Shown: positions 3,279-11,790 of the stretch, in pieces
Layout: the number at the start of each line of letters is the position of its first letter
Position numbering within the stretch: position 1 is the first letter of the stretch
IMG/VR virus record: IMGVR_UViG_3300045988_151782
Coordinates: 1-39,874 of that record
DNA from: a virus
Direction: 5' to 3' (one strand)
Length of the DNA: 39,874 nt
Made by a program: the position numbers and the translations under genes
The notes under the pieces: generated by a model
What the model was told of the DNA's origin: nothing
Seen by the model: only the letters and a program-made list of their open reading frames with translations
Databases searched by the model: none

Positions 3279-5123
3279 TTATTTCACGTTTCCGGCATAG
3301 CGCAGCTGCACATCCGTCTCCAACACCGTAGCGGTGGCGGAAGCGCTGTCGCTCTTGAAAATCAATCGGTAGAATGTTGCCTTTTTGACCTTGAGCTTTA
3401 ATCGTTCTACCTGGGGCTTCCGGTTCGTCAGAAAGGACCAGTGATTGAAATCCACATTGGTAAAGGAGGCGAAGGACGCTGCAACCACCTTGTCCGGGTA
3501 GTCGCTCCGGCGGTTGCTCTCGGCGGTGACGGTGATTCTCGCGTTATTCTCCGGCTTGATGGCTACAAAGATCACAGGGGAGTACTTGAGCTGCCAGTCC
3601 CGGTCAAAATCCATCGCGCCGGTGGCGGCATAGGCGCTGATTTCTTCGCCGTCGTCGTTGCGATAGGACCGGGACACCTCCTTGATCTTGCCCTCCTGCG
3701 TAAAGCCGAAGGTCCTCTGGTCCACCTCCAGCATAGAGACAAATGGCATGTTGGTGTAGGTGTACCAGGTATTGTTGGAGTAGTTCAGAATCAATGCGGT
3801 TTCCTTCCACAAAAACCAATACTCGTGATGATGCTTCCGGTTGAAGGTTTTCGTCTTCTCCAGATCAAAAGCACTGATGGTAGCGGCAATCCGGTCCGAT
3901 ATACGGGTCGCGTTTTGCTCGCTGTCGGTGATGTTCCCGCTGGAGGAGGTGGAGCGCCACTGATAAATGCTGCCGCCGTCCAGGGTCAGGGGGTTATTTT
4001 CCAGAAGGCGGACCTGTCCCGGGGCGTCGTTTCCGATCTGGCGGTTTACCGGGAGCACATAAAATGCCGGCGCGGTAATTCCGTTGTCCAGCACGGTGGT
4101 GCTGTATTGCAAAGACCACGCGCTGTCCCGTTTAAAAGCCATCAATCTTGCATAATGTCGAACCAGCGCTGTGATGGGGGTGTTGCTGTCTCCGATGGCG
4201 GCCTCATAGAGGTCCGGGAAGTACTCCGCCGTGGCAAGGCCCGTGTCCCCGTCAATGCCGCTGTAAATTGTCTTGTTGCTGCCGTCCCCGTATAGGAATA
4301 CCCGGCTGTCCAAAGAGCCGTTATAGAGCTCGGAGAAATGCATGGAGGTAACTTCCGCCCGCGCTCCATCTCCCTTTTTATAGGTCACGGTCACGGTGTT
4401 GGTGCCCTTTTCCGGTGCCGTTGCAAACGTCATCTTTCCGGCCGCCGTGTCCACCGTATAGGTGGCCTCCGTTCCCGTCACGGAGATCACGCTGTCAATC
4501 TCCTTTTCCGGCAGGAAAAAATCTTTGGCCGTTCCGTCCGGGGAAAACTTGACCCGCCGCTTGCCTGTCAGCCGGTTTACATTCTCCAGCAGCGTCCCGC
4601 TCCCGCCCGGTTCCGTTGCCGTCTGGATGACCGGGACATAGCCCTCCACCTCGGAAAACGTCTCGTCCTCCCCGGCGCCCCAGCTCATGTATTCGTGCCC
4701 GTTCAAGAGGTATACTTTCTCGTCAAATCCAAAGAAGGTGGTAGTTTCATCCTGGGTACAGGCCCCTACTGCGGTGACGGCCTCCGTCAGGATGTTCACG
4801 TCAAAAATAGCTCCGCCAAAGGCGCACAGCAGATGATAGGCCTTGTTGACCATCCCATACCAAGCGCCGCAGAAAACCGGCGCCTCGACAGGAGATTCCT
4901 GGTCCTCTGCCCAGGCATCCCAGGCGGTCCGCAAATGCAGCAGTGTGTGGGTACCCGGCCTAATCTGCAAGTGGCTGTCCTTGGTAATGGAGAAGTTCCG
5001 CATTTCGGACATCTCTCCAACACGGATTTTGGTGTCGCCGTCCTGATTCTCATTGAGACCTAGGAACTCCTTTATCCGCATGATCGTGATATTGCTGCCC
5101 GCTGCCATCTGGGCCAAGCTCAA
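3279..5123 (-). CDS. Virion structural protein of unknown role (possibly tail/adaptor)
   Basis: 614-aa ORF between large terminase and portal. The TTG start overlaps the terL stop (TTGA). The start codon is uncertain (alternative ATG 15 nt downstream). Confidence 0.6.
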   Translation of the reverse strand: MSLAQMAAGSNITIMRIKEFLGLNENQDGDTKIRVGEMSEMRNFSITKDSHLQIRPGTHTLLHLRTAWDAWAEDQESPVEAPVFCGAWYGMVNKAYHLLCAFGGAIFDVNILTEAVTAVGACTQDETTTFFGFDEKVYLLNGHEYMSWGAGEDETFSEVEGYVPVIQTATEPGGSGTLLENVNRLTGKRRVKFSPDGTAKDFFLPEKEIDSVISVTGTEATYTVDTAAGKMTFATAPEKGTNTVTVTYKKGDGARAEVTSMHFSELYNGSLDSRVFLYGDGSNKTIYSGIDGDTGLATAEYFPDLYEAAIGDSNTPITALVRHYARLMAFKRDSAWSLQYSTTVLDNGITAPAFYVLPVNRQIGNDAPGQVRLLENNPLTLDGGSIYQWRSTSSSGNITDSEQNATRISDRIAATISAFDLEKTKTFNRKHHHEYWFLWKETALILNYSNNTWYTYTNMPFVSMLEVDQRTFGFTQEGKIKEVSRSYRNDDGEEISAYAATGAMDFDRDWQLKYSPVIFVAIKPENNARITVTAESNRRSDYPDKVVAASFASFTNVDFNHWSFLTNRKPQVERLKLKVKKATFYRLIFKSDSASATATVLETDVQLRYAGNVK

Positions 5124-9307: not shown

Positions 9308-9529
9308 CTACCGCCCTCCATCCTGTCCGGGGACCTGGAATGACAGCAAATTCTGAATGCCCTCCTCCATCGCTTTGGAGAGACGGTTCTCTTCCTCCCC
9401 CTGCGGTTCCGCCGGCGTGGGATTGCCGCTCTGCTGGGATTCGTTTTTCTTCCCTGCGGTCCAGGCCCCGACAATGACTCCGGCCATTGTCAAAAGTCCG
9501 CCGGCTGCAAAACAGATCAAAAGCTCCAT
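9308..9529 (-). CDS. Small membrane protein
   Basis: 73 aa with an N-terminal hydrophobic helix MELLICFAAGGLLTMAGVIVGAW. The ATG overlaps the terS stop. Its TAG stop abuts the next ATG in the same frame. Confidence 0.55.
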   Translation of the reverse strand: MELLICFAAGGLLTMAGVIVGAWTAGKKNESQQSGNPTPAEPQGEEENRLSKAMEEGIQNLLSFQVPGQDGGR

Positions 9530-9945
9530 CAGGCAAAATCACTCTCTTCCATGTTTTTCCCCATCTTCACGTTTACGTTCAGATCGCTTTTTGCCTCAAT
9601 CTTGTCCTGGTAACCGCCGAATTTCTCCTGCTTCAGCAGGAAAATGCGGTAAGACACCATCTGCCTGTCGCTGTACCGCGGGTCAGAGGCAATCTGCTCC
9701 GCGATTCTGGTATAGGCCATCCGGATGGTTTCCTGCAAATGCTCGCTTCTGCGCCCTCTCCACCAATCGTCCAAGGTGCTGACGGCAGTTCCAAGAAACA
9801 CAGCCATTCCAGCCTCTGTGTACAGCTTTCCCTCCTCATCGCACTGGGAAAAATACCGCTCTAGACGCTCCTGCAGCTCTTCCGCCGTCTTAAATTTCGC
9901 GGCGGTGCTGTGCCGCTGCTTTCCGTTCTCCGGTTTCTTTGCCAT
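9529..9945 (-). CDS. terS: Terminase small subunit
   Basis: MAKKPENGKQRHSTAAKFKTAEELQERLERYFSQCDEEGKLYTEAGMAVFLG... is a typical terS HTH N-terminus. I prefer the ATG at 9945 over the GTG at 10050 because the extra 35 aa look non-protein-like. Confidence 0.75.
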   Translation of the reverse strand: MAKKPENGKQRHSTAAKFKTAEELQERLERYFSQCDEEGKLYTEAGMAVFLGTAVSTLDDWWRGRRSEHLQETIRMAYTRIAEQIASDPRYSDRQMVSYRIFLLKQEKFGGYQDKIEAKSDLNVNVKMGKNMEESDFA

Positions 9946-10088
9946 CGCACTCGCCGCCTTTCGTTTGTTGGAGCCGCCCCCGTCTCGCGCAACTGCGGGG
10001 CGGCATATCCCCCTTTGCGGGGGAGCTGTGAGTTTTTCGGCTTTTCTCACTTGCCTTTCGCCAAGAAATTCTGTAAGGACTTGCGCCC

Positions 10089-10162
10089 TGGCACGGGTGG
10101 AAGGCTCTGTTCCCCCAACCTCCGGTTTTGGAGACCGGCGCTCTCCATTGAGCTACACCCGT
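10089..10162 (-). tRNA. tRNA-Trp (anticodon CCA) with encoded CCA end and non-canonical T-arm
   Basis: Minus strand folds as ACGGGTG-TA-GCTC-AATGGA-GAGC-G-CCGGT-CTCCAAA-ACCGG-AGGTT-GGGGG-AACAGAG-CCTTC-CACCCGT-G-CCA. The acceptor, D and anticodon stems are perfect. The T-stem has two G-U pairs and the T-loop lacks TTC. Confidence 0.7.
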
Positions 10163-10796
10163 ATATGTGCGCTTCTCGCTTAAATTGTCACACGCCGCAT
10201 ATCGGCCCCGATTACGGAACTCTGGCGCAGTTTTCAGCGGGCATTGTCATTCTCTCTGAGGACTTGCGCTACGCTCAGATCATCCGGGAGCGACCCGGCC
10301 TCTGGTGGAACATCGCGGCCCTGCCCCGCTTTAGCACTTAGGGCAACGTGCCCTTCGCTTGCTGTGACCTCCCCATTTTGGGGGTGCCTATGTTCCGCAT
10401 GCCCCCGTCTTTCCGGGGTGTCAGCCACAGGAGGTGGGTGGCATTGATGGGAGATTTGGAACAAGTCTAGCCCTGTTCCTACAAAAAGCATGACAGCCAT
10501 TTCATGAATAGTCAAGACCTGTTTTTGTTTTTCTTCACAAAAATTGTCTCCCGTTTTTGCTGCATATCCTCCCCTTTTTCCGACGGGGTTGTGAAGAGCG
10601 TGGGGAATGTGTGTGATATAACCTATCCCGTTTTCCACAAGCGCCCCCTGTTTTTCCGGCACCCCCAGGGGACTCTCACACTCTGTCATCCAGCCAACCT
10701 CCATCCTCGCCCAGGACCACCCACCGCCGCACCCAGCCCCGGGAGGAGTACGATCAGCGCGCCGCAGCGGGCGGTAATACACACTACATACACAGA
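10163..10796 (-). ncRNA. Candidate large structured non-coding RNA (ROOL/GOLLD-like context); strand assumed from the adjacent tRNA
   Basis: About 630 nt without a credible ORF; the only long ORF (10234-10806) has non-protein-like composition. The region holds many short GC hairpins (for example CCCCA-TTT-TGGGG and CCCCG-TCTTTC-CGGGG). It abuts the 5' side of a phage tRNA. Confidence 0.35.
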
Positions 10797-10868
10797 AACG
10801 GCTCAAAGCGTTGAAACATCAAACAAAGCATTTAATGCCATCTTAAAATTCAACGTCCTTGAGCCGTT
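10797..10868. terminator. Long imperfect hairpin, possible terminator of the RHH gene
   Basis: AACGGCTCAAAGCGTTGAA ... TTCAACGTCCTTGAGCCGTT with a ~32-nt loop, and T-rich sequence after it on both strands. Confidence 0.45.
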
Positions 10869-11006
10869 TTGCTGATATCCGGATTTCTCTTGTTTTCTCG
10901 CAATCTTTCGGTTTTTCATGCACTTGCTATTTTTTTAATCATAGGCAGTCCGCATTTTATCAGAAAACCATATCACCAACAACCATACGCATGAATCACT
11001 CTTTCT

Positions 11007-11100
11007 CCCCCTTATTCCCCCCTCTTTCTTTCCCCCTTAAACCCCCTATCTATTACCCCCTATTATCCCCCATAACACCGCCAACACCGCCAACGCCGCC
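11007..11100 (-). repeat. G-tract array plus tandem 9-mers
   Basis: The minus strand has three 9-mers GGCGG(C/T)GTT, then six G5-6 runs separated by 5-9 A/T-rich nt (GGGGGATAATAGGGGGTAATAGATAGGGGGTTTAAGGGGGAAAGAAAGAGGGGGGAATAAGGGGG). Confidence 0.8.
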
Positions 11101-11108
11101 GCCAGAAA

Positions 11109-11306
11109 TCATCCATAAAATTCACGGCGAATCAGATCAAGAATCCAGCCGTTGACGCTTTTCCCGTCAGCTTTGGCCGCGTCCTCAATCTGCGGCTTGA
11201 CATCGACCGGCACAACCAGGGAAATCCGTGCGTAACGGTCCTTGTTGGCCTCATCCCATTTCCTGTTTGCCTGTTTCTTTGCCTCTGTATATCGCTGCTT
11301 TGCCAT
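11109..11306 (-). CDS. Ribbon-helix-helix (Arc/CopG-like) DNA-binding protein
   Basis: 65 aa: ...RYARISLVVPVDVKPQIEDAAKADGKSVNGWILDLIRREF. The SD GGAGGTGA precedes the ATG. Confidence 0.7.
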   Translation of the reverse strand: MAKQRYTEAKKQANRKWDEANKDRYARISLVVPVDVKPQIEDAAKADGKSVNGWILDLIRREFYG

Positions 11307-11499
11307 GCGCTCACCTCCAACTCATACACTTATTATATCCATATGTGTACACCAGCACAAGTGTACAATCTGCACAAAACAAACGACAAACCTTGGTACA
11401 GTTTTTTTCCTGCATCCCACTTGACAAATACACTTACACAAGTGTATGATTACATCATCCAAGGCAACCACGACAACCATCAAACAGGAGGTTATAACC
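11307..11499. promoter_or_regulatory. Divergent promoter/operator region
   Basis: Plus strand: TTGACA (11421-11426), 18 nt, TATGAT (11445-11450). Minus strand: TTGTGC, 17 nt, TATAAT upstream of the RHH gene. GTGTA(C/T)(A/G) motifs repeat at 11345, 11361 and 11442. Confidence 0.5.
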
Positions 11500-11790
11500 A
11501 TGACAACGTATTTTATGAACTGCAAAAATCTGGATGAGCTAAAAAAGGCATATAAAGCCGCCGCGATGAAATATCACCCGGACATGGGCGGCGATACGGC
11601 CACCATGCAGGCAATCAATGCAGAGTATGAAGCCCGTTTCGAGGTATTGAAGCGGTCCCAAAACGAGCAAGCTGCAGAGGATGCCACCGGACAGACAAAG
11701 GCCACGACGGAGAGCGCAGGCGACTTCATCGCCATTGTCTCCGCGCTGCTGAAATTGGACGGCCTGGAAATCGAGCTTTGCGGCCGGTAG
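11500..11790 (+). CDS. J-domain (DnaJ-like) protein, truncated by an in-frame TAG
   Basis: SD AGGAGG lies 8 nt before the ATG. The J-domain signature is LKKAYKAAAMKYHPDMGGD. The ORF stops at TAG 11788-11790 in the middle of a conserved block. Confidence 0.8.
   Translation: MTTYFMNCKNLDELKKAYKAAAMKYHPDMGGDTATMQAINAEYEARFEVLKRSQNEQAAEDATGQTKATTESAGDFIAIVSALLKLDGLEIELCGR

Follow-up and report, generated by a model that had tools for sequence, protein, structure and literature searches.

A pseudoknotted RNA and a tRNA-shaped RNA adjoining the tRNA-Trp gene in the packaging region of a gut prophage

The locus and its two RNA modules

We analysed a stretch of viral DNA of 39,874 nucleotides (nt), the IMG/VR record IMGVR_UViG_3300045988_151782 over its positions 1 to 39,874 (the window hereafter), and within it the region between a gene for a ribbon-helix-helix (RHH) protein and a tRNA-Trp gene. 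The window holds the packaging region of a temperate phage, with genes for the small and large terminase subunits (terS and terL), the major head protein, the portal and a CI-like repressor. An initial annotation, made from the letters of the sequence, had proposed one large structured RNA at 10163-10868. The tRNA-proximal part of this region in fact encodes two RNAs, a pseudoknotted one, M3, and a tRNA-shaped one, TLS-A; both belong to strongly covarying families that are absent from Rfam 15. All RNA features lie on the minus strand, on which the segment 10092-10418 reads leader hairpin, TLS-A, M3 and tRNA-Trp, with 0-1 nt between units from TLS-A on. The packaging and head module (small terminase subunit, major head protein, large terminase subunit, portal) follows 3' of tRNA-Trp. 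The annotation was thus right to place a structured non-coding RNA directly upstream of a phage tRNA, on the same strand and at the head of the packaging operon. The single RNA of about 630 nt that it envisaged dissolves into 94 nt plus 140 nt of conserved sequence, in two units that occur independently elsewhere. The features of this segment are as follows.

10403-10418, minus strand: leader hairpin CCCCG-gaaaga-CGGGG, 6 nt 5' of TLS-A, seen in the sequence and in the minimum-free-energy fold
10303-10396, minus strand: TLS-A, a 94-nt cloverleaf, defined by a match to covariance model R2 and by covariation
10396-10390 (GGAACAU) with 10313-10307 (AUGUUCC), minus strand: acceptor stem of TLS-A, 7 base pairs (bp), with discriminator A10306 and CCA at 10305-10303
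10163-10302, minus strand: M3, a 140-nt pseudoknotted RNA, defined by a match to covariance model R1 and by covariation; runs straight into tRNA-Trp
10298-10294 with 10288-10284, minus strand: M3 hairpin H1, CCGGG-UNGCN-CCCGG
10279-10274 with 10260-10255, minus strand: M3 hairpin H2, with at least six sequence variants
10269-10266 (GCGC of the H2 loop) with 10172-10169 (GCGC of the 3' tail), minus strand: M3 pseudoknot, with covariation
10255-10242, minus strand: conserved M3 joiner, AGAGAAUGACAAUG
10241-10236 with 10180-10175, minus strand: long-range M3 helix Pc, with a C10240.A10176 mismatch
10235-10229 (GAAAACU) opposite 10191-10181 (GUGACAAUUUA), minus strand: invariant M3 internal loop
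10192-10228, minus strand: hypervariable apical hairpin of M3, Pv, 37 nt in the window
10092-10162, minus strand: tRNA-Trp, anticodon CCA, matching Rfam RF00005 at 53.9 bits over model positions 1-71
10066-10088, minus strand: truncated second M3 remnant of about 21 nt, GGGCGCAAGUCCUUACAGAAU, detected as direct repeats D5 (88% over 17 nt) and D8

The covariance model R1 matched the window at 10157-10310 on the minus strand (148.5 bits, E = 2e-40), its sole copy there, and likewise finds exactly one M3 in every related locus. Pairing was assessed on two alignments, A1 (MAFFT, 46 distinct copies) and A2 (covariance-model alignment, 65 diverse copies). On A2, H1 pairs in 98.8% of cases, Pc in 97.7% and the pseudoknot in 92.6%, all four pseudoknot pairs changing on both sides; none of 500 shuffles reached the observed covariation, partners slid by 1-3 columns paired at 31-47%, and A1 agrees. 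In the pseudoknot, four or more bases of the H2 loop pair with bases after the last helix, and at least eight covarying versions exist (GCGC/GCGC, CGGC/GCCG, UCGGCUU/AAGCCGA, CCGUCU/AGACGG, UCGUC/GACGA, GCAG/CUGC, GCGA/UCGU and UGCG/CGCA). Pc, with the consensus NCCGCU/AGCGGN and the compensatory variants CUCGCU/AGCGAG, GCUGCU/AGCAGC and CUCGUU/AACGGG, encloses the invariant asymmetric internal loop (GAAAACU opposite GUGACAAUYUA) and the apical Pv. G.U pairs are frequent on A2, where 24 U.G occur at one Pc pair and the base of Pv has 58 G.U; since these would be A.C mismatches on the other strand, M3 is read from the minus strand, as are the tRNA and terminase genes. Both MAFFT and the covariance model set H2 in the wrong register in about half of the rows, and the low pairing figure for H2 reflects this error of the aligners rather than a lack of pairing; the helix was checked by script. 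RNAalifold on the MAFFT alignment recovered just H1 and part of Pc. Compared by eye, M3 copies show conserved motifs parted by hairpins that differ in sequence and still pair.

M3 is 130-210 nt long across loci, with a minimal form of about 115 nt. Its 20-base motif GACAATGNCCGCTGAAAACTG has exact copies in 84 IMG/VR contigs, and a looser motif is found in at least 120. The motif also occurs in three of 185,579 species-representative genomes, including metagenome-assembled genomes of Oscillospiraceae and Phocaeicola.

Pv spans 13-94 nt across loci and falls into about ten sequence types. An identical Pv type can sit on M3 backbones that differ in H1, H2 and pseudoknot, and phages that are 96-99% identical in their flanks carry different Pv types (38, 51 or 94 nt). 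Because types are shared across backbones and differ between otherwise identical phages, Pv has been exchanged by recombination and not by drift. The differences in Pv length are not multiples of three, which excludes a coding frame. The segment GGGCGCAAGUCCUUACAGAAU, directly after the CCA of tRNA-Trp, copies the H2 loop and the 3' strand of M3 and appears to be what a deletion left of a second M3; similar truncated copies are present in two other loci (L244 and L234).

The model R2 matched the window once, at 10297-10404 on the minus strand (103.8 bits, E = 5e-31), and the minimum-free-energy fold of the window itself gives the TLS-A cloverleaf. In alignment A3, which holds 22 distinct versions, pairing holds in 98% of cells, and both sides change in 14 of 23 pairs; none of 500 shuffles matches this, and slid controls pair at 32-42%. 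The acceptor stem exists in four sequence versions, with six of its seven pairs changing on both sides, and the ACCA is at least 90% conserved. The remaining arms are a short D-like hairpin, a long arm with a 3-nt apical loop and a 4-bp T-like arm with the invariant loop GGCAGGR; the long arm has a 3-nt bulge followed by G.A/A.A pairs, an internal loop that appears k-turn-like. TLS-A resembles a canonical tRNA in its four-way junction, 7-bp acceptor, discriminator and CCA, 7-nt T-like loop and its place in the tRNA slots of arrays. It differs in its k-turn-like internal loop, in the sequence of the T-loop (GGCAGGR, against UUCRANY in tRNA), in its D-like loop (GUAA or AAAAU, without GG) and in having no anticodon loop, for which reason it cannot decode. 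Neither ARAGORN nor the Rfam tRNA model at E<=10 detected it.

TLS-A was found by motif scan in at least 120 IMG/VR contigs. M3 was present in 16 of 86 newly fetched TLS-A loci, and most of the others held TLS-A by itself or TLS-A followed by a further module, TLS-B. As TLS-A mostly occurs without M3, the two are separate genes and not halves of one RNA, and the strong conservation of TLS-A suggests that it has a function of its own.

Covariation in homologues, which the initial annotation had named as a check, is thus present in both modules. Of the six short GC stems that it had picked out, five are real helices with covariation behind them: CTGAG/CTCAG is H2 and CCGGG-AGCGA-CCCGG is H1 of M3, GGGCA-ACG-TGCCC and CCCCA-TTT-TGGGG are arms of TLS-A, and CCCCG-TCTTTC-CGGGG is the leader hairpin 5' of TLS-A. 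The stem CCCCTG...CAGGGG is not among these five.

The tRNA-Trp that M3 runs into has its encoded CCA at 10091-10089, a non-canonical T-loop (AACAGAG) and G.U pairs in the T stem. ARAGORN reports no tRNA anywhere in the window and misses this one because the loop is not UUCRANY; the full-length match to RF00005, with an anticodon, identifies it. It may be a degenerate tRNA, kept mainly for its processing signal.

Rfam 15 was searched with cmscan over the whole window at the gathering score, and at E<=10 over 9400-11700, over the 281-nt core 10150-10430 and over seven related loci (L001, L008, L096, L138, L021, L149 and L136). At E<=10 these searches returned only tRNAs and chance matches, which rules out ROOL, GOLLD, HEARO, raiA, all ribozyme families, RNase P, tmRNA and the signal recognition particle RNA as modelled in Rfam. 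Apparent likenesses, by eye, to the conserved regions of RNase P, to glmS, to the hammerhead (CUGAUGA...GAAA) and to the hairpin ribozyme were set aside, as key positions vary or the topology differs. An HDV-like (hepatitis delta virus-like) fold was rejected for M3 because only 4 nt precede H1, which cannot be P3 with a P1/P2 strand ahead of it. A literature search found no description of the M3 and TLS-A motifs; both may already figure in the set of 10,006 anonymous viral RNA candidates in Fremin et al. 2023. As the initial annotation suggested, the region may hold a new RNA class.

Conservation and array context in related phages

With the small terminase subunit protein as query we obtained seven near-identical IMG/VR contigs, which were aligned to 10051-11320. 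Identity is 95-99% throughout, apart from two exceptions: the block 10196-10226 is replaced wholesale, and in some contigs everything after 10163 is replaced. Outside this near-identical lineage conservation stops at about 10425, leaving the tRNA-proximal 260 nt or so as the conserved part. One locus (L047) has the same sequence from 10425 down to the terminase gene, comprising TLS-A, M3, tRNA and terS, and carries a tRNA-like gene and unrelated sequence upstream of this point. The leader hairpin is restricted to the window-type lineage, and is also found in L047, which diverges farther upstream. A sensitive blastn search of 10051-11108 against 50,697 phage records returned tRNA-Trp genes and a single diverged contig, MT836871.1, an unannotated human-faecal phage sequence with 76% identity over 91 nt, whose homologous stretch lies between a tRNA-Gln and two further tRNAs.

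Across 160 distinct loci, the start of M3 falls between -4 and +2 nt from the end of an upstream tRNA, TLS-A or TLS-B, and a tRNA or TLS-A follows it, usually within about 0-2 nt, all units being co-oriented. Among the upstream tRNAs are those for Pro, Trp, Thr, Gln, Glu and Cys, and there are others. In 94% of loci, compared with 57% at control offsets, M3 is preceded at a distance of 1-5 nt (mostly 3-4) by the end of an acceptor-like helix of 6 bp or more, and the 5' junction of M3 reads CCA|G in 59 of 144 loci and CAA|G in 33. A single acceptor/D/T scaffold recurs in many of the flanking tRNAs, and its anticodon arm is hypervariable, has given way to an insert or is absent; for this reason these tRNAs cannot all decode. 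On one side of the arrays is a regulator gene, and on the other are terS, ParB-like/methylase or terL genes. No RNA-processing enzyme was found within about 3 kb of the arrays, where the proteins encoded are regulators, terS, terL, ParB-like/methylase and small unknown proteins.

Recombination has also acted at the borders of the modules. In phages 98-99% identical to the window, breakpoints fall exactly at 10163 and at Pv, and in two loci (L008 and L191) tRNA-Trp is replaced from 10163 on by other modules. This replacement (L008 3420-4000, L191 about 4140-4700) is 560-700 nt long, with breakpoints at window positions 10163 and 10008, and in L191 it holds a 99-amino-acid (aa) open reading frame (ORF). 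It contains an element of about 185 nt closed by GAGCGGUG/CACCCGCUC, with a T-arm-like hairpin, GUGAGGUGCAAAUCCUCAC, which is probably another tRNA-framed RNA.

Two further tRNA-like elements were noted in these arrays. A scaffold of the form GCAGGCGUAGCUCAGUCGGUAGAGC...GGUCGCUGGUUCGAGUCCAGCCGCCUGCA lies about 80-100 nt upstream of M3 in eight loci (L014, L016, L042, L046, L057, L103, L118 and L123) and also at 4202-4294 of L001. ARAGORN calls differing 'anticodons' for it; some copies have a pseudoknot-like insert of about 35 nt in place of the arm, and those of L057 and L123 are without the arm. These copies look like natural tRNA scaffolds. TLS-B, of about 105-125 nt, occurs in at least 48 loci (for example L001 at about 3917-4020, L043 and L018), usually directly after TLS-A, and is absent from the window and from Rfam. 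Its acceptor strand CCACACA pairs with UGUGUGG, followed by A and CCA, and its internal loops are purine-rich. On one M3-bearing contig (L149, 9190-9242, minus strand), a near-match to the ribozyme candidate RAGATH-5 scored 47 bits, the gathering score being 50.

Possible roles of the cassette

The reading that we prefer, and hold with moderate confidence, is that the cassette forms a late transcript resembling a tRNA array, from which tRNA-processing enzymes would release TLS-A and M3 as stable RNAs acting in trans. It would be transcribed together with the late genes. RNase P would cut at the 5' end of a downstream tRNA or TLS, and RNase Z or a related 3' endonuclease at the end of an upstream one; the flanking tRNA-like bodies would serve as processing handles, and the cuts would free TLS-A and M3 as separate non-coding RNAs. 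The invariant unpaired segments of M3 (two copies of UGACAAU, and GAAAAC) may form the contact surface for a putative partner, probably either a defence factor or part of the translation or tRNA machinery of the host, and Pv may be an exchangeable peripheral or specificity domain. We favour tRNA-like bodies that serve M3, rather than an M3 that serves tRNA maturation, because the adjoining scaffolds are non-decoding.

There are precedents for such an arrangement. RNAC and RNAD of phage T4, the stable RNAs known as species 1 and 2, are encoded in the T4 tRNA gene cluster and released by tRNA-processing enzymes. In MALAT1-mascRNA and in the tRNA-miRNA units of murine gammaherpesvirus 68, RNase P and RNase Z free a neighbouring RNA from a non-decoding tRNA-shaped handle. 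The latter handles are eukaryotic or herpesviral, whereas the processing proposed here is predicted from the gene layout. RNAC and RNAD, which are late phage RNAs of unknown function (PMC9697503), are by analogy the closest functional precedent: as our module maps show for M3 and TLS-A, they are small non-tRNA genes set among phage tRNA genes. Hosts and structures differ, and the blastn search against the phage records gave no homology to them.

Several observations weigh against this proposal. In several loci, namely L012, L018, L054 and L171, a ribosome-binding site and start codon come directly after M3; as no tRNA-like element follows there, RNase P cannot define the 3' end of M3 in these loci. 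In some bacteria, tRNAs with an encoded CCA are poor substrates of RNase Z, which leaves the 5' cut of M3 unexplained in the loci with a CCA|G junction. The covariation samples were gathered by exact sequence motifs, which inflated the apparent invariance of the motifs and limited diversity, and single-sequence folding of the conserved 263 nt is unexceptional (z = -1.55).

The 5' border of M3 might instead be made by M3 itself. It could be a new cis-acting self-cleaving (or hydrolytic) ribozyme that cuts right after the upstream CCA or NNA and so makes the upstream tRNA-like 3' end without host nucleases, which would render it a larger functional analogue of the theta ribozymes. This is the chief rival to the processing model, and we regard it as unlikely. 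A tRNA-like 3' end is always found within a few nt of the start of M3, and the A|G junction is at least 90% conserved, even where CAA, UUA or UCA replaces CCA. The architecture of M3 is of a kind typical of ribozymes, the core being pseudoknotted, many unpaired nucleotides being invariant and the variable peripheral stem (13-94 nt) being dispensable. A structured trailer that touches an encoded CCA hinders exonucleolytic 3' trimming, an obstacle that cleavage by M3 would remove. Theta ribozymes, minimal HDV-like ribozymes of about 50-60 nt with nested double pseudoknots, abut tRNAs in gut phages and set a precedent; 4.5% of their tRNAs encode CCA (PMC10879173). M3 shares with them the gut Caudoviricetes, a start only a few nt away from the 3' end of a phage tRNA and a possible role in processing the tRNA 3' trailer, and in the 160 loci it fits the theta cleavage site, about 5 nt from the tRNA 3' end, by position only.

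M3 lacks the nested double pseudoknot of theta and HDV ribozymes (P1, P1.1, P2, P3 and P4, with P1 at the cleavage site); it is larger, consists of H1, H2, the pseudoknot that joins the H2 loop and the 3' tail, and Pc-Pv, and mostly follows an encoded CCA. Its topology is not HDV-like, and the Rfam searches at E<=10 gave no HDV, hatchet, pistol, twister, hammerhead or glmS match. There is one M3 per array even where there are many tRNAs. The upstream partner is often a non-decoding scaffold without an anticodon arm, so that tRNA maturation would not be the whole purpose of M3. The 5'-most G-N-N-G of M3 shows no covariation with the core, and mutual-information scans for partners of this element or of the upstream CCA were dominated by lineage and gave nothing convincing. 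Transesterification, moreover, would leave a 2',3'-cyclic phosphate on the encoded CCA.

A bolder version, which we hold to be rather improbable, would have gut phages carry an RNA toolkit, not recognised before, that is founded on tRNA architecture. M3 would be either a new class of catalytic RNA that cuts at the CCA end of the preceding tRNA-shaped unit or a new effector RNA that acts in trans. The anticodon-less scaffolds, together with TLS-A and TLS-B, would be natural tRNA scaffolds displaying exchangeable hairpins (Pv and the replacements of the anticodon arm) as decoys or specificity modules, in an arms race against host defence enzymes that target tRNA or CCA.

The cassette might also act in cis, as the leader of the late (packaging) operon, for example by signalling processive antitermination or through a 5' structure that shields the processed late mRNA from 5'-3' decay. 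The placement of most arrays between a transcription-activator-like or other regulator gene and terS, ParB-like or terL would suit such a leader, as would the several loci in which 5-25 nt separate the end of M3 from a ribosome-binding site and start codon, and the terminator-like hairpin that precedes the region in the window. We nevertheless consider it quite doubtful. The downstream neighbour varies (tRNA, TLS-A, unrelated ORFs), the Shine-Dalgarno sequence is never within the conserved structure, TLS-A mostly occurs without M3, and the two modules are found in either order. A leader would also leave unexplained why tRNA-like ends abut at 0-2 nt on both sides, and there is no similarity to known antitermination RNAs in Rfam.

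The initial annotation had looked to GOLLD and ROOL, structured phage and prophage RNAs found near tRNA islands, of which GOLLD has a conserved 3' part and a variable 5' part, sometimes with tRNAs embedded between them (PMC12286853). M3 and TLS-A resemble them in being non-coding, structured and located near tRNA genes of phages or prophages, and M3 also in its pseudoknot. A single large ornate RNA of this type at 10163-10868, or one new RNA some 630 nt long, would fit the context (a prophage, beside a tRNA, without a conserved ORF), and arrays of the form TLS-A-TLS-B-(tRNA)-M3, which reach about 740 nt elsewhere, loosely recall the layout of GOLLD. That reading is now largely refuted and must be considered very improbable. 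No ROOL, GOLLD, HEARO or raiA model, and no universally conserved 3' domain of GOLLD, matched at E<=10 in the window or the seven related loci; ROOL measures about 580 nt and GOLLD more than 800 nt, against 94 and 130-210 nt here; and 10419-10868 is conserved in near-identical phages only. Unlike a single ROOL or GOLLD RNA, the units here are separable, occurring alone and in both orders.

That the region works as something other than RNA, whether as a protein gene (the 190-aa ORF at 10234-10806 or a 67-aa antisense ORF) or as a DNA site (pac/cos or an operator array), is hardly credible, even though public gene calls place a 151-aa ORF here in four of eight related contigs, an ORF antisense to M3 'clusters' in 102 loci (a mere consequence of DNA conservation) and the region adjoins terS, where pac sites often lie: compensatory helix substitutions and abundant strand-specific G.U pairs are not expected of a DNA site or a reading frame, and Pv copies differ in length by amounts that are not multiples of three. 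As the initial annotation had maintained, no believable ORF lies between the RHH gene and tRNA-Trp, no ORF within 10163-11108 having a match in Pfam. The 190-aa ORF, which it had called non-protein-like, is not coding, because it is frameshifted in relatives 96-99% identical to the window: 1-nt indels near 10571 break it into 94 and 110 aa in L005 and into 101 and 127 aa in L008. Since homologues covary and no coding frame is conserved in relatives, the structured RNA postulated by the annotation stands.

TLS-A and M3 bear on how phages process and use non-decoding tRNA-like RNAs, on whether there are further tRNA-linked ribozyme classes and on whether RNA decoys serve phages against tRNA-directed defence. 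Phage tRNA islands hide enigmatic RNAs such as GOLLD, ROOL and T4 RNAC/RNAD, and to these are added two compact and abundant families, present in hundreds of gut-phage contigs, in phages of Bacillota and Bacteroidota. The strict abutment to tRNA-like ends, a hairpin that is swapped wholesale and adjoining scaffolds whose anticodon arm is replaced or deleted make them good experimental material, and the minimal form of M3 is of a size suited to direct cleavage assays and to the determination of its structure.

Upstream spacer and neighbouring genes

The features that flank the cassette are as follows.

10419-10795, minus strand: lineage-specific spacer, which aligns only to relatives 95-99% identical
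10796-10870, minus strand: long hairpin, imperfectly paired, with about 19 bp in the stem and an A-tract/U-tract at the base, detected as inverted repeat I3
9529-10050, minus strand: terS, with a probable start at ATG 9945 according to public assembly calls
11109-11306, minus strand: gene for the 65-aa RHH protein, upstream of the RNA region

Neither R1 nor R2 matched in 10426-10868, and the possibility that this upstream half is a decayed duplicate of the modules was rejected, as blastn self-comparison gave E>=0.22. Folding of 10426-10868 is modestly stable (z = -2.64), most of the effect coming from the long hairpin. The hairpin itself folds at -35.5 kcal/mol (z = -5.4), with none of 200 shuffles as stable, in keeping with the closing hairpin that had been predicted here; in L008 both substitutions in its stem keep the pairing (10850 A>G yields a G.U pair, 10807 U>C a G-C pair). 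It is a candidate bidirectional terminator, or a candidate boundary of transcripts, separating the RHH gene from the RNA array. A simple terminator scan does not call it because its loop is too long and its T-run too short. The spacer may hold a (late) promoter, a candidate being TTGACT-17-CATGCT at about 10517-10489; a promoter scan of the spacer gave nothing above threshold.

On the other side of the cassette, the 143-nt leader of terS contains two GC-rich hairpins at 9946-10010 on the minus strand, CCCCCGCAAAGGGGG and GCCGCCCC...GGGGGCGGC, the second of which is kept in all relatives, even where the tRNA is replaced. The CI-like repressor gene lies farther upstream than the RHH gene. The sequence of the RHH protein occurs, identical, in 1012 blocks of a public assembly index, and in loci L186-L193 an integrase gene or a host aminotransferase gene is found about 1.5 kb beyond the RHH gene; the phage is a very common integrated gut prophage, with the RNA cassette near one prophage end. 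Directly after the RHH stop codon, at 11000-11085, six G5 tracts of the minus strand (C-runs on the plus strand) are spaced about 11-13 nt apart, a candidate protein-binding array, pac-type site or G-quadruplex-forming sequence. The most variable stretch among the relatives 96-99% identical is 11050-11099. Just upstream of the RHH gene, the plus strand carries an operator-like near-repeat, CATATGTGTACA at 11340-11367 and CACAAGTGTACA at 11421-11450. A sigma-70-like promoter on the plus strand (TTGACA-18-TATGAT, 11 of 12 positions matching) faces a DnaJ-like gene.

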